A stretch of DNA of 40,220 nt, from the IMG/VR virus record IMGVR_UViG_2671181134_000016. One strand, 5' to 3'. The DNA is from a virus. Lineage: Duplodnaviria > Heunggongvirae > Uroviricota > Caudoviricetes. This document shows, in pieces, positions 11,177 through 38,717 of this stretch. Position 1 is the stretch's first letter. Each line of letters opens with the position of its first letter. The notes under the pieces were generated by a model. It did not search any database. It had not been told where the DNA came from and was given only the letters and a program-made list of their open reading frames with translations. The translations under genes were made by a program, and so were the position numbers.

Positions 11177-11193
11177 TTTTGTGGAGAAGGTTG

Positions 11194-11544
11194 ATGCGTG
11201 ATATGTATGAAGTATTGGACCGCTGGGGAGCATGGGCTGCAGCAGATAACAGTGGTGTGGACTGGCAGCCTGTTGCTGCAGGGTTTAAAGGTTTACTACC
11301 TCATGGAAAGAAAACACGCCAACAATGCGATGATGATGAAGGAATCATGATTGACAGCTGTGTTGCGCGATTGCGGAAATATAAGCCAGAAGAATATGAA
11401 CTGATCATTGCTCACTTTGTTATCGGTATTTCACTCCGTTCAATAGCAAAGAAACGGAAATGCTCTGACGGGTCAATCAGAAAACAACTTCAAGCAGCAA
11501 TAGGAGTGATTGAAGGTATTTTGTTGATTATTAAGCCCCTGTAG
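11194..11544 (+). CDS. Q: Late-gene antiterminator Q (phage 82 / QuuD type)
   Basis: MRDMYEVLDRWGAWAA...FKGLLP... closely resembles remembered E. coli QuuD (MRDIQQVLERWGAWAA...); GGAGAAGG Shine-Dalgarno. Confidence 0.85.
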   Translation: MRDMYEVLDRWGAWAAADNSGVDWQPVAAGFKGLLPHGKKTRQQCDDDEGIMIDSCVARLRKYKPEEYELIIAHFVIGISLRSIAKKRKCSDGSIRKQLQAAIGVIEGILLIIKPL

Positions 11545-11550
11545 GGCTTA
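11532..11550. terminator. Hairpin at the convergent junction of Q and the reverse cassette (putative bidirectional terminator)
   Basis: TAAGCCC-ctgta-GGGCTTA, overlapping both stop codons; no clean T-run. Confidence 0.4.
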
Positions 11551-12132
11551 ATAATTCATATGAATTCTGTTTCCGAGATAATATAATCCAAAGAAAGTTG
11601 ATACTAAGAGTTGCCAAACGAGGAAAGTAAATACAACAGTATAAACCATTAAAACAATACTGTTTTGATAGACATTGATTAATGGTGAAAATATAGCATT
11701 AAGTATTATTATAACAATGCTTAATGCTGTTAAAAAAGAGAATAGCATGCAAAGAAATAAGCGTCTGGTCAGAACCTCCTCTGAATTTACTACTTTTCCA
11801 TTTTCTTTTGTTACTTTTATTTCAATAGAGGCATTTCTTTCATTGCTAATCAATGGTAAATCAATCTCAGCTCTATTGAAAGTTGCTATGGCGGCCAGAG
11901 CGGCAATATAAAACCCTGGTAGGTTAGAGATAAATGAAACGATTGATTTAATGAAACCATTGTCATCAAATAAATCTTTGACAGGGATTTTTAATAGAAT
12001 GAAAAGTACTGCTGTGATAGAAGTAAGTAGAATTGGTGCTACCCAATCATATGCAGCTTTGCCGCTAATACCTTTAATAAAAAGATATCCAAACGGCTTG
12101 CCTAGATGAGAGAAAACTGAAAGTATTGGCAT
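11548..12132 (-). CDS. Cassette gene C: 4-TM integral membrane protein of unknown family
   Basis: 194 aa with four hydrophobic spans; GAGG before ATG at 12132; AT-rich; last gene of a three-gene operon. Confidence 0.7.
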   Translation of the reverse strand: MPILSVFSHLGKPFGYLFIKGISGKAAYDWVAPILLTSITAVLFILLKIPVKDLFDDNGFIKSIVSFISNLPGFYIAALAAIATFNRAEIDLPLISNERNASIEIKVTKENGKVVNSEEVLTRRLFLCMLFSFLTALSIVIIILNAIFSPLINVYQNSIVLMVYTVVFTFLVWQLLVSTFFGLYYLGNRIHMNY

Positions 12133-12139
12133 AATAACC

Positions 12140-12559
12140 TCACATCAAATCTATCATTTTCACAACAAACTCTAGTTCAATTTTAACATATGAATCCTTC
12201 AGGCGCGAATTAAAGTTATCGATAATGCTTTTCTTAATAAATGTTTTTTCTAAATTATTAAGATTGATGTTTGAGGTTTTGAAATCAACCTGCCTTGGTT
12301 TATTTGTTTCAGGATCTTGGAATTTAACCTTTAATTTATCATAACCACCATTCATTTTTTTATTGAAATGAGATGCTACATTTTTAATCCATCCAATAAC
12401 ATTGTCACCATGATTTGGAAGTAATTTTAATGTACTTTCAGTCGGAATGTAAGGTGAATTAACATCAGGAGCATTAATTGTTCCGAATTGATCCTTGACT
12501 AATATGACATCTGATAATCCTTTTTGGCTTATTTTATTAAAAAGCTCCTTGTCTAACAT
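12140..12559 (-). CDS. Cassette gene B: soluble protein of unknown family
   Basis: 139 aa; ATG overlaps stop of gene A (ATGTTAG), indicating translational coupling. Confidence 0.65.
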   Translation of the reverse strand: MLDKELFNKISQKGLSDVILVKDQFGTINAPDVNSPYIPTESTLKLLPNHGDNVIGWIKNVASHFNKKMNGGYDKLKVKFQDPETNKPRQVDFKTSNINLNNLEKTFIKKSIIDNFNSRLKDSYVKIELEFVVKMIDLM

Positions 12560-13161
12560 TCCTGTAAATTCAAATATTGGTTTGTATCGTATTTTACTTC
12601 TTTTTTTGATGTTGCAGAAATAACGTTAGTTGGATGTTTTGCGGTAAATAAGTCTTCATTGTCTTTCGCCACTTCAAAGAGAATTTTGTCTAAAAAACTA
12701 TTTAACCGGGCCGTAGATACACCTGGGGTAGATGTACAAATCATATCATAGGTTCTTTTATTTCCATTTAATGATATGACAACATAGGTAGAAACTTCAT
12801 AGCCTTCACCTTGTTCATATTTTGGTTGGATTTCAACGCGTTCATTAGTATTTGTATTTTTTACAACGGTAGTACTTCCATTTTTATCAACACTATTAAT
12901 AAGAAGGACAATATGCGTGGGTGAGTTATCTGGAAGTAAAGGATAAAGTTGTACATCTTGGAGAGTAACTACAATATTCCCAGAATCATATGAATGAACG
13001 AGTCCCTTTTGTTTAACAATCAATGGGGCAAGCATGTACATTTCCGGAACAGGACATATACACTGGGCTTTTACCTCTTGTGTTGCCTTGGTTCTAAACT
13101 TTGTGTCAATGGTCAGACTATGATGAGTAACGAGTCTTTCGCTAGCATTTAATTTTGCCAT
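12553..13161 (-). CDS. Cassette gene A: soluble beta-rich protein of unknown family
   Basis: 202 aa; ATG at 13161; AT-rich; first gene of the reverse-oriented operon inserted between Q and the late operon. Confidence 0.65.
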   Translation of the reverse strand: MAKLNASERLVTHHSLTIDTKFRTKATQEVKAQCICPVPEMYMLAPLIVKQKGLVHSYDSGNIVVTLQDVQLYPLLPDNSPTHIVLLINSVDKNGSTTVVKNTNTNERVEIQPKYEQGEGYEVSTYVVISLNGNKRTYDMICTSTPGVSTARLNSFLDKILFEVAKDNEDLFTAKHPTNVISATSKKEVKYDTNQYLNLQEC

Positions 13162-13446: not shown

Positions 13447-13773
13447 ATGCCTCATAACCCAAATACCTGGCTGGAGTTGTTCCAGAGCTGGTGGCGTGGA
13501 GACACACCGCTGGGCGCAGTGATTATGTCGATCGTTATGGCTGGCTTGCGCATTGCCTATTTTGGCGGTGGTGGTGGCTGGAAACGAAAAACGCTCGAGA
13601 TTTTGCTCTGTGGTGCTCTGACGCTGACTTTTGCATCCGCTCTTGAGTATGTCGGATGGCCTAAATCTCTTTCTGTTGCCATTGGTGGCGGCGTTGGGCT
13701 GATCGGGGTCGATGCTATTCGTGGGGCTGCAATGAGAGTAATCGGTAATAAGTTTGGTGGCTCTAAGGAGTAA
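13447..13773 (+). CDS. Holin, lambda S-like class I (3 TM)
   Basis: Three hydrophobic segments, charged C-terminal tail; immediately upstream of the endolysin. Confidence 0.8.
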   Translation: MPHNPNTWLELFQSWWRGDTPLGAVIMSIVMAGLRIAYFGGGGGWKRKTLEILLCGALTLTFASALEYVGWPKSLSVAIGGGVGLIGVDAIRGAAMRVIGNKFGGSKE

Positions 13774-13776
13774 TTT

Positions 13777-14253
13777 ATGCAGGTACTAAATTCCCAGCGT
13801 AAAGCTTTCCTGGATATGGTGGCATGGTCAGAGGGAACGGATAACGGGCGACAACCGACACGTAACCACGGTTATGACGTTATTGTCGGTGGAGAACTCT
13901 TCACTGATTACTCCGATCACCCTCGCAAGCTTGTCACGCTAAACCCGAAACTCAAATCAACAGCTGCAGGCCGTTATCAACTTCTTTCGCGCTGGTGGGA
14001 TGCTTACCGCAAGCAGTTAGGGCTGACAGACTTCTCTCCTAAAAGCCAGGATGCTGTTGCATTACAGCAGATTAAAGAGCGTGGCGCTTTACCGATGATT
14101 GATCGCGGCGATATTCGTCAGGCTATCGATCGTTGCAGCAATATCTGGGCGTCGTTACCTGGTGCAGGTTACGGTCAGTATGAACATAAAATCGGTGACC
14201 TGATTTCCCGGTTTAAAGAGGCTGGTGGGGTGGTAAATGAAGTTGAGCTATAA
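13777..14253 (+). CDS. R: Endolysin, lambda R-type lytic transglycosylase
   Basis: Near-identical over most of its length to remembered lambda R (NQRKAFLDM.AWSEGTDNGRQ.TRNHGYDVIVGGELFTDYSDHPRKLVTLNPKLKS...). Confidence 0.95.
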   Translation: MQVLNSQRKAFLDMVAWSEGTDNGRQPTRNHGYDVIVGGELFTDYSDHPRKLVTLNPKLKSTAAGRYQLLSRWWDAYRKQLGLTDFSPKSQDAVALQQIKERGALPMIDRGDIRQAIDRCSNIWASLPGAGYGQYEHKIGDLISRFKEAGGVVNEVEL

Positions 14254-14629
14254 GCTGGTTATCGCTGCATTCTTCTTTACTGTCATCGGTTCTTTCATCT
14301 GGTCTGCCAACCACTACTACAGCAAATATCAGCACGAAAAGAAACGTGCTGATGAGGCTGTACAAAATGCTGAATCTGCAACAGCCATTACCCGTAACGT
14401 CCTGCAATCACTGCAAATCGTCAATACAGTTATAGAGGTTAACCAGCATGCAAAACAGCAGATCGCACTGGAGTCACAGAGAACCCAGAAAGATATCAAA
14501 GTGGCTGTTGCGGATGATGATTGTGCTGCACGCCTTGTGCCTGCTGCCGCTGCTGAGCGGTTGCGGAAGTACGCGGACAGTTTACGTACAAGTTCCGGCA
14601 GTACCACTCCCGACGAATCTGATCGCTGA
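14237..14629 (+). CDS. Rz: Rz-like i-spanin
   Basis: N-terminal TM anchor followed by coiled-coil-like periplasmic domain; overlaps end of R. Confidence 0.7.
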   Translation: MKLSYKLVIAAFFFTVIGSFIWSANHYYSKYQHEKKRADEAVQNAESATAITRNVLQSLQIVNTVIEVNQHAKQQIALESQRTQKDIKVAVADDDCAARLVPAAAAERLRKYADSLRTSSGSTTPDESDR

Positions 14630-14771
14630 AACCTCGCAACCAGTTATTCCTGAGCCGCTGACTTTTGAGGGCAGCCTAGATTTGAACGTTAGTCTGTTAT
14701 CGGCGTTGGGTCAATGTAACCTTGACAAGGCTAGCATCAGACGGATTGAACAATCACGATTCTCACAATAG
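14514..14771 (+). CDS. Rz1: Rz1-like o-spanin lipoprotein in the +1 frame, overlapping and extending beyond Rz
   Basis: MMIVLHALCLLPLLSGC lipobox, proline-rich mature region. Confidence 0.65.
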   Translation: MMIVLHALCLLPLLSGCGSTRTVYVQVPAVPLPTNLIAETSQPVIPEPLTFEGSLDLNVSLLSALGQCNLDKASIRRIEQSRFSQ

Positions 14772-14947
14772 CGAGTTTTTATCATAAGAAAGGTGCTTTT
14801 CACTAAATCCCTGCATTTGAAGCTGAAGATGGAAAGAAACGCTACTGGGTATACTACTACTGGTCGCTTATTCTGAATCAGAAGAGAACGGCGTCCTTCA
14901 GCTCGAAGAGTCGGCTATAAACAGGCACTTTGGGTGCCTGTTAATGA

Positions 14948-15289
14948 TTAGTCCTGCATGAATCTCTCTCTTTCTATTTCATAACCGTCGCTTTCTTCTC
15001 GGCAGTTTTGACATAAGAGATCTCCATAGTAACCTTGTAAGTTATAAGCTTCTTCTAGCTCATAGCCAGAGATAACCTTAGAGCAACCGTTATGGTGCCC
15101 GCCTGGATTTCTAACACCACCACATGGGTGAGAAAGGAAAGGTTGCAATACCCTCTTTTGCGGTGCAGAAAGACTATCAAATCCTTTGGTTACAGCTAAC
15201 TTAGCGATTCCACTAACTTTACCATCTTCATGATAAAATGCGTCACAATTAAGCATTGTATTGAGTAATGATTCTACTTCGTCAGACAC
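14948..15289 (-). CDS. Cys/His-rich hypothetical protein (moron at the bor position); start uncertain (GTG 15289 with AGAGAGG, or ATG 15256)
   Basis: C..HPCGG..HHNGC..CQNC pattern suggests a zinc-binding fold; reverse orientation downstream of lysis genes. Confidence 0.5.
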   Translation of the reverse strand: MSDEVESLLNTMLNCDAFYHEDGKVSGIAKLAVTKGFDSLSAPQKRVLQPFLSHPCGGVRNPGGHHNGCSKVISGYELEEAYNLQGYYGDLLCQNCREESDGYEIERERFMQD

Positions 15290-15461
15290 TGGAAATACCT
15301 CTCTATAAACAAAAGTAATAGCTATCACACAAAGCTTAAGCACATAAACTAAAATAAATCAAAATGTTAATGATAATCGTATAGTAAAAAGAAAAGGCTG
15401 AAGTAGCCGAGAGGTAGCAATAGCAGGTTAAGGCAGGCACTTAGTAAGTGCCTGCCACTGG

Positions 15462-15671
15462 TTAGTAACAAGATGGTGTATTGTTGAATCTGTAAGAGAG
15501 GCGAACTATTTCAGAAACCCCTTTTCGGTTTAACAATCGCCTTATATTCTCTGGATTTTTGTAAATAAAAGGATTCCTTAGATCCTCGAACACTCCTCCT
15601 GCAATGCAAATCAAATATTCCAGATCTTCTTGTGTTGGTAAGGTTGAAAGTTTGTTATTTGCATTATTCAT
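15462..15671 (-). CDS. Small hypothetical protein (69 aa)
   Basis: ATG at 15671 with strong AGGAG Shine-Dalgarno; perfect palindrome GGCAGGCACTTA/TAAGTGCCTGCC just downstream. Confidence 0.5.
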   Translation of the reverse strand: MNNANNKLSTLPTQEDLEYLICIAGGVFEDLRNPFIYKNPENIRRLLNRKGVSEIVRLSYRFNNTPSCY

Positions 15672-15792
15672 TTTACAGCTCCTAATTATTGCCGTTATTG
15701 GCGTGGTGCATGATAGGAAGTTTGTGATTTTTAACGGTAGCTGGGGCAAGCTTTTTGTGAATCCTATGCACATCATCAAATCGAGTTTTTTA

Positions 15793-16143
15793 ATGCCACA
15801 ACGAACCCCAAAAGCCTGCCGTGTTCGCGGCTGCCGCCATACCACTACTGACCCGTCAGGCTACTGCGAAAGCCACAAAAGCGAAGGCTGGAAGCAATAC
15901 AAGCCAGGCCAGTCCCGACACCAGCGCGGTTATGGTTCGAAATGGGATGTTATCCGTGAACGTGTGCTCAAGCGTGACAAAGGCCTGTGTCAGTTGTGCC
16001 TGCGTGTCGGTGTGGTGCGTGAGGCGAAAACCGTTGACCACATCATCCCTAAAGCGCATGGCGGCACTGATGCAGACTGCAATCTGCAGAGCCTGTGCTG
16101 GCCGTGTCATAAGGCGAAGACGGCCCGTGAACGGCTAAAGTGA
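15793..16143 (+). CDS. HNH endonuclease (terminase-associated)
   Basis: Cys/His motifs CRVRGCRHTT...CESH ... DHIIPKAHGGTDADCNLQSLCWPCHKAKT. Confidence 0.85.
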   Translation: MPQRTPKACRVRGCRHTTTDPSGYCESHKSEGWKQYKPGQSRHQRGYGSKWDVIRERVLKRDKGLCQLCLRVGVVREAKTVDHIIPKAHGGTDADCNLQSLCWPCHKAKTARERLK

Positions 16144-16167
16144 TAATAATTCTCAACTGCCAGTGGG

Positions 16168-16226
16168 GAGGGGCGGGTCAAATCCCTGTGACCTGACGTC
16201 TTCCGGACTGCCCGCCCCATCGTTTT
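16168..16226 (+). terminator. GC-rich hairpin with T-run between HNH and small terminase genes (terminator; possibly part of the cos region)
   Basis: GGGGCGGG ... CCCGCCCC stem followed by atcgttttttt. Confidence 0.45.
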
Positions 16227-16268
16227 TTTATACCCGCGAAAAATGAAATTTAACCAGGAGTGCCGCAT

Positions 16269-16763
16269 ATGGCTGGAACGGCGGGGCGTTCCGGGCGTCG
16301 CCCCAAGCCAACGGCGCGCAAGGCGCTGGCCGGAAACCCCGGCAAGCGAGCCCTGAACAAAGATGAACCTGTTTTTACGCCCATCAAAGGTGTTGAGCCA
16401 CCGGAGTGGTTCGCTGAAGAAGATCTCCCTCTCGCCACGATCATGTGGCAACTGACAACCAAAGAACTCTGCGGTCAGGGCCTGTTGTGCGTGACTGACC
16501 TGGCGGTACTTGAGCTGTGGTGCGTGGCCTATGAGTTCTGGCGACGTGCCGTGAAAAATATTGCCAGCCAGGGCAACACCATCACCGGTGCAATGGGCGG
16601 TATGGTCAAAAATCCGGAGCTGACCGCCAAAAAAGAACAGGAGTCCGAGATGAGCAGTACGGGGGCAATGCTCGGACTCGACCCCAGCAGCCGCCAGCGT
16701 CTGATTGGCCTGGCGGGGAAGAAGAAAGCCACTAACCCGTTTCTGAAAATCATCGAATCATGA
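16269..16763 (+). CDS. Terminase small subunit (P27 family)
   Basis: [14 protein letters not shown]... typical P27-family N-terminus; CAGGAG Shine-Dalgarno. Confidence 0.8.
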
Positions 16764-18493
16764 GCCGGAAATCTTACCCTAACGTAAATGCTGCCAATCA
16801 GTATGCCCGGGATGTCGTGCGCGGGAAGATTGTGGCCTGCCAGTTTGTGATTCAGGCCTGCCAGCGCCATCTTGATGACCTGATGGCGGAAAAAAGTAAG
16901 TCGTTTCGTTACCGCTTCGACAAGGACCTGGCTGAACGGGCCGCCAAATTTATTCAGCTGTTGCCGCACACCAAGGGTGAGTGGGCATTCAAGAGGATGC
17001 CCATCACGCTGGAGCCGTGGCAGCTATTTGTGATCTGCTGTGCGTTTGGCTGGGTCAATAAAGGCACCCGGTTGCGCCGCTTCCGGGAGGTGTATACCGA
17101 AATTCCCCGTAAGAACGGCAAATCGGCAATCTCTGCCGGTGTTGCCCTGTATTGTTTTGCCTGTGATAACGAGTTCGGCGCGGAAGTGTATTCCGGTGCC
17201 ACGACGGAGAAACAGGCATGGGAAGTCTTTCGTCCGGCACGACTGATGTGTAAACGCACACCCATGCTGACGGAAGCGTTCGGGATTGAGGTTAACGCCT
17301 CAAACATGAACCGTCCGGAGGATGGCGCGCGGTTTGAACCGCTGATCGGTAACCCCGGTGATGGATCATCACCCCACTGTGCGGTGGTGGATGAATATCA
17401 CGAGCACGCCACCGATGCGCTTTACACCACGATGCTTACCGGGATGGGGGCGCGACGTCAGCCACTGATGTGGGCCATTACTACTGCCGGGTACAACATT
17501 GAGGGGCCGTGCTACGACAAACGGCGGGAAGTTATCGAGATGCTCAACGGTTCGGTACCCAACGATGAACTGTTCGGGATCATCTATACCGTTGACGAAG
17601 GTGACGACTGGACCAACCCACAGGTGCTGGAAAAAGCCAACCCGAATATCGGGGTGTCGGTTTACCGTGAGTTTTTGTTAAGTCAGCAACAGCGTGCGAA
17701 AAATAACGCCCGTCTGGCAAACGTCTTTAAAACAAAACACCTCAATATCTGGGTGTCGGCGCGTTCGGCGTATTTCAACCTGGTGAGCTGGCAGAGCTGC
17801 GAGGATAAATCACTGACTCTTGAGCAATTCGAGGGGCAGCCGTGCATTCTGGCCTTTGACCTGGCGCGTAAACTGGATATGAACAGCATGGCGCGACTTT
17901 ATACCCGCGAGATTGACGGTAAAACGCATTACTACAGTGTGGCCCCGCGTTTCTGGGTACCGTATGACACGGTGTACAGCGTCGAGAAAAATGAAGATCG
18001 CCGCACAGCCGAACGCTTTCAGAAATGGGTGGAAATGGGCGTCCTGACCGTTACCGATGGTGCAGAGGTGGATTATCGCTACATCCTCGAAGAGGCCAAA
18101 GCGGCGAACAAAATCAGCCCGGTCAGCGAGTCACCCATCGACCCCTTCGGGGCGACCGGGCTGTCACATGACCTTGCTGATGAAGACCTGAATCCCGTCA
18201 CTATCTTCCAGAACTTCACCAATATGTCCGATCCGATGAAAGAGCTGGAAGCAGCGATTGAATCGGGACGTTTTCATCATGACGGCAATCCCATCATGAC
18301 CTGGTGTATCGGCAACGTGGTCGGCAAAAACATGCCGGGTAACGATGATGTGGTGAAGCCCGTCAAGGAGCAGGCGGAAAACAAAATTGACGGTGCAGTT
18401 GCGCTGATTATGGCGGTTGGCAGAGCCATGCTGTACGAGAAAGAAGACACGCTGTCTGACCACATTGAGTCCTATGGGATCCGCTCGCTTTAA
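16760..18493 (+). CDS. Terminase large subunit
   Basis: 577 aa with ATPase and nuclease-type segments; coupled to the small subunit stop. Confidence 0.9.
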
Positions 18494-26230: not shown

Positions 26231-28055
26231 ATTTGAGCTTAAGGCGTTGATCACCGGTGTCGACAGGCTTTCTCCCGCGCTGTCGAAAATGCAAAAGAAA
26301 ATCCGGGGATTTAAACGCCAGGCGGAAGAAGCGTCACAGGGTGGGCTGGCGCTTGGTGGAGGACTGGCAGCGGGGCTGACGCTTTCCCTGAAATCTTATG
26401 CCGATCAGGAAAACGCCGCTACCGGGCTGAAAGTCGCCATGATGGATGCGAACGGCGAGGTTGGAAAGAGCTTTCAGGACATCAATAAACTGGCTATTGG
26501 CCTGGGTAACCAGCTACCCGGTACAACGGCTGATTTCCAGAACATGATGCAGATGCTGGTGCGTCAGGGGATCCCGGCAGAAAACATTCTGGGTGGTGTG
26601 GGTAAAGCGACAGCTTATCTTGCGGTACAACTGAAAAAAACACCGGAAGCGGCTGCTGAGTTTGCTGCAAAGATGCAGGATGCTACCGGAACGGCGTCAG
26701 AAGACATGATGGGGCTGTTCGACACTATCCAGAAGGCGTTTTATCTGGGCGTTGACGATACCAACATGTTGTCCTTCTTCACTAAAACCAGTTCTGTTCT
26801 GAAGATGGTGAACAAGGACGGTCTTCAGGCTGCACAGAGCCTTGCCCCCATCAGCGTCATGATGGATCAGATGGGGATGAACGGGGAGTCGGCAGGTAAT
26901 GCCCTGCGAAAAGTTATCCAGTCCGGATTAAGTGTTAAGAAAATCAGGGACGTCAATAAAGTCATGGCCCGCCAGAAACTCGGGGTACAGCTCGATTTTA
27001 CTGACGGCAAAGGAAGTTTTGGCGGTCTTGATAACATGTTCAGGCAACTGGCAAAGTTGCGAAAACTGACCGACGTTAAGCGAACAGGCGTACTTAAGGC
27101 AATATTTGGTGATGATGCCGAAACCCTTCAGGTGGTCAATGCCCTGATCGATAAAGGAAAGGATGGCTACGATCAGATCCAGCAGAAGATGAATAAACAG
27201 GCCAGCCTGAATAAACGTGTTCAGGCTCAGCTTGGTACGCTGTCCAACCTGTGGGAGGCAATGACGGGGACCGCAACTAACGGTCTTGCAGCTATTGGCG
27301 GCGCATTTTCTGGTGACGCTAAAAATATCACGCAATGGCTGGGGGAGTTGGGGGAAAAATTCACGAAGTTTGCGGATGAAAATCCCCGGGTTATTCGCGG
27401 CGTCGTCGGGCTTGCTGCCGGTCTTGCGATTCTGAAACTGGGATTGATGGGCGTTGGCGGTGCCATCAGTATTGTCAGCAGGATCATGTCGATGACGCCG
27501 ATTGGCATGATTGCGACGGCGATAGCCCTGGCTGCGGGATTAATTATCACTAACTGGGATGTTGTCGGACCTTATTTTAAGAAACTCTGGGAAACCATTG
27601 GTCCTTATTTTGAGGCTGGCTGGGAACTCCTTAAGAAAGTTTTTGCCTGGTCGCCGCTGGGGATGGTGATCAATAACTGGGGGCCGGTTGTTAAGTGGTT
27701 TCAGGATATGTGGGACAAGCTGAAGCCAATTATTGAGTGGTTTACCGACAGTTCCGGTGACACGGTCGATGCCATTAACTCTGCGCAGTGGGGCGCGGGT
27801 GCTTATGATGCTTATGGGACGGGAATACCGACGCGGGGATACACACCTTATCCGGCGGTGGATCCGGCTCAGTCAAACAACGCCTCCGATGCCACAGGCC
27901 CGAATCCCTTCATGATTAACAAAGCTATCGCGCCAAAAGTTGATGGCGAGATCAAGGTTTCATTTATGAATATGCCACCAGGTATGCGGGTTACGGAAAC
28001 ACGTTCCAGTGGCATTGATATTAATCACGATGTTGGGTACACCAGATTTAGGTAA
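26223..28055 (+). CDS. Tail tape measure protein
   Basis: 610 aa, Ala/Gly-rich with hydrophobic C-terminal segments. Confidence 0.85.
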   Translation: MAEFELKALITGVDRLSPALSKMQKKIRGFKRQAEEASQGGLALGGGLAAGLTLSLKSYADQENAATGLKVAMMDANGEVGKSFQDINKLAIGLGNQLPGTTADFQNMMQMLVRQGIPAENILGGVGKATAYLAVQLKKTPEAAAEFAAKMQDATGTASEDMMGLFDTIQKAFYLGVDDTNMLSFFTKTSSVLKMVNKDGLQAAQSLAPISVMMDQMGMNGESAGNALRKVIQSGLSVKKIRDVNKVMARQKLGVQLDFTDGKGSFGGLDNMFRQLAKLRKLTDVKRTGVLKAIFGDDAETLQVVNALIDKGKDGYDQIQQKMNKQASLNKRVQAQLGTLSNLWEAMTGTATNGLAAIGGAFSGDAKNITQWLGELGEKFTKFADENPRVIRGVVGLAAGLAILKLGLMGVGGAISIVSRIMSMTPIGMIATAIALAAGLIITNWDVVGPYFKKLWETIGPYFEAGWELLKKVFAWSPLGMVINNWGPVVKWFQDMWDKLKPIIEWFTDSSGDTVDAINSAQWGAGAYDAYGTGIPTRGYTPYPAVDPAQSNNASDATGPNPFMINKAIAPKVDGEIKVSFMNMPPGMRVTETRSSGIDINHDVGYTRFR

Positions 28056-28061
28056 AGACGA

Positions 28062-28083
28062 ACAGGGAGGGCCGTCCCTCCCT
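28062..28083. terminator. Bidirectional hairpin between tape measure gene and the convergent moron
   Basis: AGGGAGGG-ccgt-CCCTCCCT. Confidence 0.5.
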
Positions 28084-28087
28084 GAAC

Positions 28088-28534
28088 TTACTGTGCGAAC
28101 ACGCAATTTCGGCCTGATGGGGAGCCGACAATTCTGGACATTTTTTCGCAAATAACAGTTACTTGTTCTCCTTTTTTAAGAGCAGCAGCTGTTGATTTTT
28201 CAGAGTCTTGCATCTCCATTCTTGCTGGCATGAATTCATTTTCAGTTCTGAATTTAATAATTATAGAGTCAGTAAAGTCCTTATCAATGGATTGTACGAT
28301 ACCTCTAACGGCGATTAATTTACCTTTTAACTGTTCATCGGTAGCGACTTCATTTTCTTCATACTCTTTAAACAGCTGTCGAGCAGTAGTGTTGTAGATT
28401 TCTTTTTGCGGTGCCGCAGCTTCCGTATCGGATGAGTATGAAGAATTAGAGCCTTTATCGTTATTGCCTGCAAAATATCCAATAATCACCAACCCGATGA
28501 AAATATATAAAATCCATTTTAATAATTTCTTCAT
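28088..28534 (-). CDS. Moron: N-terminally membrane-anchored protein with OB-fold-like (tRNA_anti-like) C-terminal domain
   Basis: MKKLLKWILYIFIGLVIIGYFAG signal-anchor; AT-rich; opposite strand inside the tail operon. Confidence 0.6.
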   Translation of the reverse strand: MKKLLKWILYIFIGLVIIGYFAGNNDKGSNSSYSSDTEAAAPQKEIYNTTARQLFKEYEENEVATDEQLKGKLIAVRGIVQSIDKDFTDSIIIKFRTENEFMPARMEMQDSEKSTAAALKKGEQVTVICEKMSRIVGSPSGRNCVFAQ

Positions 28535-38198: not shown

Positions 38199-38529
38199 AT
38201 CATCATTAAGGCTGGAAAATTTTCACCAATGAAGGTTGCTGTTTTCTGTAAGCTTTTGAGGGTACAGCAATGAGAATTATGAAGTATTGGAGAAAAATAA
38301 ATTCAACTAATTGATTACACTATATAAAATGCATGATTTAAATTCTCTCTTTAGAGTGAACCTACTGAATAGTGTTAGCTGTCGATTTTGACCAAAAAAG
38401 GGTTATCAAAACCCAAAAACATATATTGATAATCAGTGGGTTAGGGGAATGCCGATAGTCAGTTGGTTAAGTGTGAATTGGTGGAATTATACTTACATAT
38501 CAAATTGTTGGTATTAGTCTTTCTAAATA

Positions 38530-38694
38530 ATGTTACGCCATATGGGCTGGACTGAAGCCGCAGACCTGATTGTTAAAGGTATGGAAGGCGCAATCAATGC
38601 GAAGACCGTAACCTATGACTTCGAGCGTCTGATGGAAGGCGCTAAACTGCTGAAATGTTCAGAATTTGGTGACGCGATCATCAAGAACATGTAA
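38530..38694 (+). pseudogene. icd: 3' fragment of isocitrate dehydrogenase gene (icdC-like attachment-site remnant)
   Basis: Encodes [54 protein letters not shown], the remembered C-terminus of E. coli Icd; in-frame stop immediately upstream shows it is a detached fragment. Confidence 0.85.
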
Positions 38695-38717
38695 TCACTA
38701 CATGTGTTTAATATTGC

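Follow-up and report, generated by a model that had tools for sequence, protein, structure and literature searches.

In phage lambda, the bor gene is a moron carried on the opposite strand after Rz/Rz1; it is a single small gene with its own hairpin and is absent in some relatives. It encodes a lipoprotein of the outer membrane, complete with signal peptide and lipobox, and its expression in the lysogen is the accepted view. In phi80, tai, an opposite-strand defence gene of the Tai/Ati tail-assembly-inhibition system, lies directly ahead of the packaging module and breaks up the Q-dependent late operon (PMC11364771). Production of tai in the lysogen, and its decrease upon expression of Q, have been shown experimentally (He et al. 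2024, PMC11364771).

Here we describe two minus-strand genes, p113 and p69, in a 40,220-nucleotide stretch of viral DNA (IMG/VR record IMGVR_UViG_2671181134_000016), the whole of which is referred to as the window. Like lambda bor, both genes sit where the lysis cassette gives way to the packaging genes and face against the late operon. An earlier note on this DNA had placed them in a bor-equivalent position, and the annotation bears this out, since they directly follow Rz/Rz1, precede the packaging genes and are encoded on the opposite strand. The arrangement also shares a feature of the phi80 tai/ati “non-contiguous operon”, with opposite-strand cargo directly upstream of the packaging module.

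The resemblance does not extend to the proteins. For p113 and p69, no Pfam match was obtained, Lambda_Bor included. Their N-termini, read directly (MSDEVESLL... and MNNANNKLST...), are polar or acidic and contain no signal peptide, lipobox or membrane helix, and the GRAVY values of the two proteins are -0.58 and -0.51. In comparison with phi80, TaiEcA has 204 residues against 113 in p113, and no late-strand partner equivalent to ati was found next to p113/p69 in the window. Homology to TaiEcA/AtiEcA was also considered and rejected, as BLASTP and profile searches with phi80 orf63–66 gave no match. In its position, and probably in its regulation, the region resembles lambda bor and phi80 tai; it belongs to neither family.

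Genomic setting of the variable slot

The prophage in the window is SfV/e14-like and inserted at icd; its head is of the HK97 type and its tail is contractile. A prophage in E. coli S19-651 (CP075852) is 99.96–100% identical to it. The late region begins with the antiterminator gene Q (about 11193–11543) and continues with the holin (13447–13773), the endolysin (13777–14253), Rz (14237–14629) and an Rz1-like spanin gene (14448–14771, plus strand; ORF, annotated as lysC in RefSeq), which ends the lysis cassette. The minus-strand genes p113 and p69 follow, and beyond them an HNH endonuclease gene (15793–16143, plus strand; Pfam HNH, E = 1e-14, RefSeq CDS) starts the HK97-type packaging module, with the small and large terminase subunits after it.

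Between Rz1 and the HNH gene, the window contains a variable, AT-rich insert (14732–15789, no strand) that phage SfV lacks. Homology to SfV breaks off at 14731 and restarts at 15790, leaving 1058 bp of unrelated DNA in the window, while the Rz1–HNH spacing in SfV itself is just 26 bp. The GC content of the insert is 35–43%, compared with 50–58% in the flanks. The entire insert was present in 5 of 5426 complete E. coli genomes, and a similar HNH gene in 851 of them; in draft assemblies, exact p113 was found on 380 contigs and a member of the p69 cluster on 335. At this position, some sampled relatives have no gene and others have a single 168-aa gene (phrog_5789), three or four; the slot was therefore regarded as a variable cargo site. 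Where genes fill it in these relatives, all of them lie on the late strand, and those of other E. coli relatives are unrelated. The cargo of the window is unusual in that it points backwards, in contrast to the late-strand cargo of its relatives.

These properties correspond to those of a moron in the Hendrix/Juhala sense. The genes are extra ones between neighbours that are adjacent in related phages, their base composition is unlike that of the flanks, and each has its own terminator in the form of a stable hairpin 2–5 nt past the stop codon. A promoter scan of positions 14600–16300 revealed no sigma-70 consensus site, and none was recognised upstream of either p113 or p69. The prophage sRNA svsR of a related prophage was also considered; it is located at the cI gene, outside the p113/p69 region.

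Other features of the prophage were observed outside the slot. Two AT-rich genes (30–36% GC) lie on the minus strand between Q and the holin (11547–13161), the larger of which has a PADLOC match, to the candidate defence family PDC-M53A. A 1-bp deletion near 12592 divides this larger gene into ORFs of 139 and 202 aa in the window, and its counterpart in CP075852 is intact (340 aa). Another cargo candidate, on the opposite strand at about 27989–28435 (L001 33290–33736), is the gene that comes right after the tape-measure gene in the tail module and is annotated as an OB-fold protein. Immediately to the left of the window (L001 3779–5865), icd and the integrase gene are separated by two genes, one for an AAA-family ATPase and one for a hypothetical protein of 188 aa, which may form a defence system at the edge of the attachment site. 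The segment 33935–35800, a tail-fibre/tail-fibre-assembly region beside a recombinase pseudogene, is inverted relative to CP075852 and looks like a Pin/Gin-type invertible host-range segment in the other orientation. A 169-bp copy of the icd 3' end (38527–38695, 95.9% identity) is the duplicate that an e14-type insertion should leave at its far attachment site. Within the large terminase gene, a length difference of 99 nt relative to CP075852 was located at 17660–17744; the protein has 577 aa in the window, as in other relatives, and the CP075852 copy is shorter.

The p113 gene and its family

The earlier note had described two minus-strand reading frames at this locus and, in the first, the motifs HPCGG, HHNGC and CQNC. 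Both frames lie where it placed them, and the motifs are present in the translation. The mechanically called ORF of p113 starts with a GTG at 15343 and has 131 codons for amino acids. The real start is the GTG at 15289, giving a 113-aa protein, because the N-termini of the homologues (MSE...), the PHROG profile (residues 21–131) and the RefSeq annotation agree on it. The gene therefore spans 14948–15289 on the minus strand, as supported by the ORF, PHROG, RefSeq and the alignments, and encodes an acidic cytoplasmic protein with conserved cysteines C56, C69, C93 and C96. A ribosome-binding site, GAGAGG, was read from the sequence at 15298–15303 (minus strand), 8 nt before the GTG. In RefSeq, p113 is the hypothetical protein WP_001361772.1 (342 nt); a literature search on this accession found nothing.

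The protein matches phrog_12178 over the entire profile (positions 1–111 of 111, E = 6e-57, or 6.1e-57 before rounding). Neither PHROG 12178 nor PHROG 22590, the family of p69, is functionally annotated, and membership is therefore silent on mechanism. The p113 family comprises 12 clusters at 90% identity; at 50% identity, an exhaustive search gave 67. Its members are stand-alone proteins of about 110 aa, barring cut-down fragments and one 3172-aa match; the latter, an astacin-type repeat protein, was dismissed as spurious. In the comparison with the Klebsiella homologue, dN was 0.15 and the synonymous sites were saturated. We regard p113 and p69 as real genes, the latter somewhat less certainly.

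Prophages of Klebsiella and Pectobacterium also carry p113 homologues (75–77% identity), likewise on the opposite strand at the lysis/packaging junction and without p69. Among IMG/VR loci, 76 carry a p113 homologue; p69 is absent from 71 of them, and the other five all represent the same E. coli prophage. Between Rz and the gene for the small terminase subunit, p113 is alone on the opposite strand at most of these loci, and this position is kept across at least four terminase/portal types. A strong hairpin directly past the stop codon was observed at about half of 54 non-redundant p113 loci. In the upstream regions of 46 non-redundant homologues, promoter scores were no better than those of shuffled sequences.

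More remote homologues were found in Pseudomonas, Vibrio, Marinobacter, Halomonas and other Gammaproteobacteria, in settings that are integrative or resemble defence islands. Their neighbours include a caspase-like protein with a KAP NTPase (PDC-S49), a type IV restriction-like HNH protein, a PD-(D/E)XK nuclease with integrases, and a P2 GPA-type replication protein. No recurrent neighbour gene or immune system was consistently found beside them.

A small late-strand gene of about 66–71 aa, phrog_6581, is often convergent with p113 and was considered as a partner. It has at least 533 relatives in IMG/VR, and p113 is present in only 13 of 80 sampled phrog_6581 loci; since it is far commoner than p113, the partnership was rejected. 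In P22-like prophages (L118–L197, IMG/VR loci), phrog_6581 is located after Rz, and a further variable insertion point seems to lie just beyond it, on the downstream side.

Sequence conservation and predicted structure of p113

The p113 protein is hydrophilic and acidic, with a pI of 4.87 and a net charge of -8, and the family median pI is 4.66. In an alignment of 49 family sequences, C56 and C93 never vary, and conservation is at least 90% at C69 and C96. The AlphaFold2 model (pLDDT 91.7) consists of three N-terminal helices, a short beta-hairpin bearing C56 and C69, and two further helices, with C93 and C96 at the start of the last one. Alignment and model together place the four conserved cysteines for one metal site, as in four-Cys zinc proteins, so that p113 likely binds zinc through them. 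The earlier note had called the protein Cys/His-rich and likely zinc-binding; for the four cysteines this is upheld by the 49 sequences, but the histidines of HPCGG and HHNGC vary across the family and do not belong to the conserved set.

The spacing (C-x12-C ... C-x2-C), with the four cysteines arranged as a knuckle and a helix start, is like that of treble-clef and LIM-type zinc fingers, and weak profile matches connect p113 with LIM domains. In the PDB sequence search, with both the single sequence and the 49-member profile, only insignificant LIM-type matches were obtained. Searches of PDB and BFVD with the confident model returned no significant fold match and nothing enzyme-like. Pfam, NCBIfam and PADLOC scans gave zero matches for p113 and p69 alike.

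A further candidate, an HNH or His-Me finger nuclease, was rejected; neither p113 nor any of 49 relatives has an HNH match, and H65/H66 vary. All database names of p113 relatives are “hypothetical”, except for one UniRef entry labelled “HNH endonuclease”. This label is apparently wrong, as the pattern of conservation speaks against it.

The earlier note had been able to name no family for either gene. This holds for Pfam, NCBIfam, PADLOC and PDB, but both proteins do fall into PHROG families, 12178 and 22590, which have no assigned function. The profile and structure searches that it proposed yielded no domain family and, for p113, no significant fold match; homology to phage structural or lysis genes, which it had named as counter-evidence, was not found.

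The p69 gene

The second gene, p69, occupies 15462–15671 on the minus strand and encodes a mildly basic, helical protein of 69 aa; its identification is based on the ORF, PHROG and codon-position differences. An AGGAG Shine-Dalgarno sequence, pointed out in the earlier note together with the 69-aa frame, is indeed present at 15679–15683 (minus strand), 7 nt before the ATG, and the hexamer TAGGAG is conserved in the Logan contig L002. The match to phrog_22590 covers the complete profile (positions 1–70 of 70, E = 1e-40). RefSeq does not annotate p69.

Evidence for coding comes from the comparison with the 67%-identical relative in L002, for which dN/dS is 0.33. The differences at first, second and third codon positions number 15/11/24 overall and 3/4/13 in the conserved core. 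The gene is rare; among 5.8 billion proteins, it forms only two clusters at 90% identity, and a search for more relatives in these proteins, IMG/VR and one genome per species found only one divergent relative. The divergent intergenic region between p69 and the HNH gene (15672–15792, no strand) is 70% identical to L002 and contains conserved blocks. It presumably holds the p69 promoter, although the scan recognised none.

The protein has a pI of 8.7, and its AlphaFold2 model is helical with low confidence (pLDDT 64.5). In this model, the stretch ENIRRLLNRKGVSEIVRLSYRF comes out as a helix-turn-helix. Residues 40–63 read like such a motif, and p69 could be a DNA-binding regulator. Searches of Pfam, NCBIfam and PDB sequences produced neither a helix-turn-helix nor any other family match for p69, and because no family matches it, we regard the motif as a mere lead.

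Hairpins at the borders of the two units

Directly beyond p69 lies a perfect palindrome (15432–15456, minus strand), with 12-nt arms at 15432–15443 and 15445–15456 separated by one central base. The earlier note was right about its perfect 12+12 structure, and its coordinates (15431–15455) were one base off. The palindrome begins 5 nt past the p69 stop, its arms are 100% complementary, and it folds into an 11-bp stem with a 3-nt loop (-21.3 kcal/mol, z = -3.2). It marks the border of the p69 unit with the p113 unit. No U-tract follows it, so that p69 and p113 might be co-transcribed. A second inverted repeat, at 14917–14945 on the minus strand, forms a terminator-like stem-loop with a UUUAU tail 2 nt past the p113 stop (-17.7 kcal/mol, z = -3.5). 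Neither hairpin was listed by a strict terminator scan, because their T-runs are weak or absent. No Rfam match was found for the region.

Both hairpins have the core CAGGCA..TGCCTG in common, which occurs in the window only at these two sites, against an expectation of 0.01. A hairpin with the same stem was found after the p69 homologue in L002 and before the p113 homologue in a Pectobacterium prophage (L006) that has no p69. The CAGGCA..TGCCTG hairpins are thus present at cassette borders of three prophages, those of E. coli, L002 and Pectobacterium L006; they lie at about 775–810 in L002 and about 5820–5850 in L006, where the stem is the same and the loop is inverted. Since one of them precedes a p113 homologue without p69, we place these hairpins at the joints of modules, and they may serve as shared joints for module recombination.

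Independence of the two genes

In L002, the p69 locus adjoins the HNH gene, has a 173-aa helix-turn-helix gene downstream and contains no p113. DNA homology between the window and L002 extends over 15433–16233 (75%), from the palindrome through p69 and the intergenic region into the HNH gene, and we therefore assign p69 and its palindrome to the left end of the packaging module. From this comparison, p113 with its own hairpin is a separate unit, and the sequence evidence describes p113 and p69 as independent modules and not as a functional pair.

The possibility that p69 and p113 form a toxin-antitoxin or defence pair was considered and rejected, given that they do not co-occur across genomes. 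In L002, the 173-aa helix-turn-helix gene is closely preceded, at 940–1000, by two direct copies of TTCCTGTCAGGAAATTA, each with a palindrome; these copies resemble the operators of a repressor-type cargo gene that regulates itself.

Interpretation and alternatives

The explanation we favour, tentatively and with a little less than even confidence, is that p113 and p69 represent two separately acquired moron cassettes lying antisense in a Q-dependent late operon, expressed in the lysogen, with p113 acting as a protein-binding factor. One unit would comprise p113 and its downstream hairpin, and the other p69 and the palindrome, which would travel with the left end of the HNH–terminase module. 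Both genes would be transcribed in the lysogen while the late operon is silent, and Q-driven late transcription would oppose them during lytic growth. Since they face the late operon, expression in the lysogen is probable by analogy, with damping by Q-driven transcription. The p113 protein would be zinc-stabilised and non-enzymatic and would work by binding another protein, a proposal made because it probably has a structural zinc site, its surface is acidic and it lacks the signature of an enzyme. The lysogen would gain protection against other phages, or the host would be modulated in some other way. Because of the slot and the company kept by the distant relatives, exclusion of other phages is our first guess and counter-defence the second. 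A role of p113 in phage exclusion is possible, with function assigned from position, orientation and analogy; against a defence reading, neither protein matched any PADLOC defence model. A bolder proposal is that p113 founds a family of small, acidic, zinc-stabilised prophage proteins lacking a solved structural relative, and that it would act as a single-gene factor, expressed in the lysogen, which blocks other phages or a host immune system by binding and neutralising one specific protein. Its place at the lysis/packaging junction would let late transcription switch it off in the lytic growth of its own prophage. This proposal is rather doubtful.

Several other explanations were weighed against the two-cassette reading. 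If p113 were a counter-defence protein, it would inhibit a host immune system in the manner of Ocr, ArdA or an anti-CRISPR, from its own promoter and soon after DNA entry, ahead of any late transcription across the gene. The acidity of p113 (pI 4.87, family median 4.66), its small, stand-alone form without an enzymatic domain, and the integrative or defence-island-like settings of distant homologues are consistent with this. However, the gene lies antisense in the late region and not in an early operon, it shows no likeness to known inhibitors in PDB or BFVD, and no neighbouring immune system is consistently present; we consider counter-defence unlikely. The two genes could instead act as a regulatory pair, in which a helix-turn-helix-like p69 and a zinc-finger p113, encoded in one operon with the palindrome as attenuator, tune the late, packaging or lysis genes of the phage itself. 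This is quite unlikely, as the two genes are not found together elsewhere, neither is present in most related prophages, which are presumably viable, an acidic protein such as p113 would be an unusual DNA binder, and the fold and family matches are all below significance.

For p69 alone, the absence of a RefSeq annotation, the similar conservation of the flanking non-coding DNA (70% versus 76%) and the stable 3' hairpin would also suit a regulatory or antisense RNA ending in that hairpin, or an upstream region of the packaging module, with no protein made. The excess of third-position differences in the core (3/4/13), the dN/dS of 0.33, the AGGAG conserved at the correct spacing and the PHROG match (E = 1e-40), together with the lack of an Rfam match, argue against such a function, which appears decidedly unlikely. 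Lysogenic conversion at the cell envelope, for example to serum resistance or adhesion, would follow the model of lambda bor, whose slot and orientation the locus shares. With no Lambda_Bor match, signal peptide, lipobox or membrane helix, this possibility is largely refuted by the sequence and seems extremely improbable.

Biological significance

The two-cassette reading assigns the locus to a known kind of element, prophage cargo at the lysis/packaging junction, and what is new is its content, the uncharacterised genes p113 and p69. Temperate phages use this junction to carry genes with a role in the lysogen, such as lambda bor and phi80 tai. The p113 family occupies the same slot in the same orientation in about 70 prophage-like contigs, and its confidently predicted structure has no known relative. 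If p113 should prove to be without a phenotype, the region would be one more example of mosaic prophage cargo. As it stands, p113 represents a compact and cheap candidate for a phage-exclusion or counter-defence screen.
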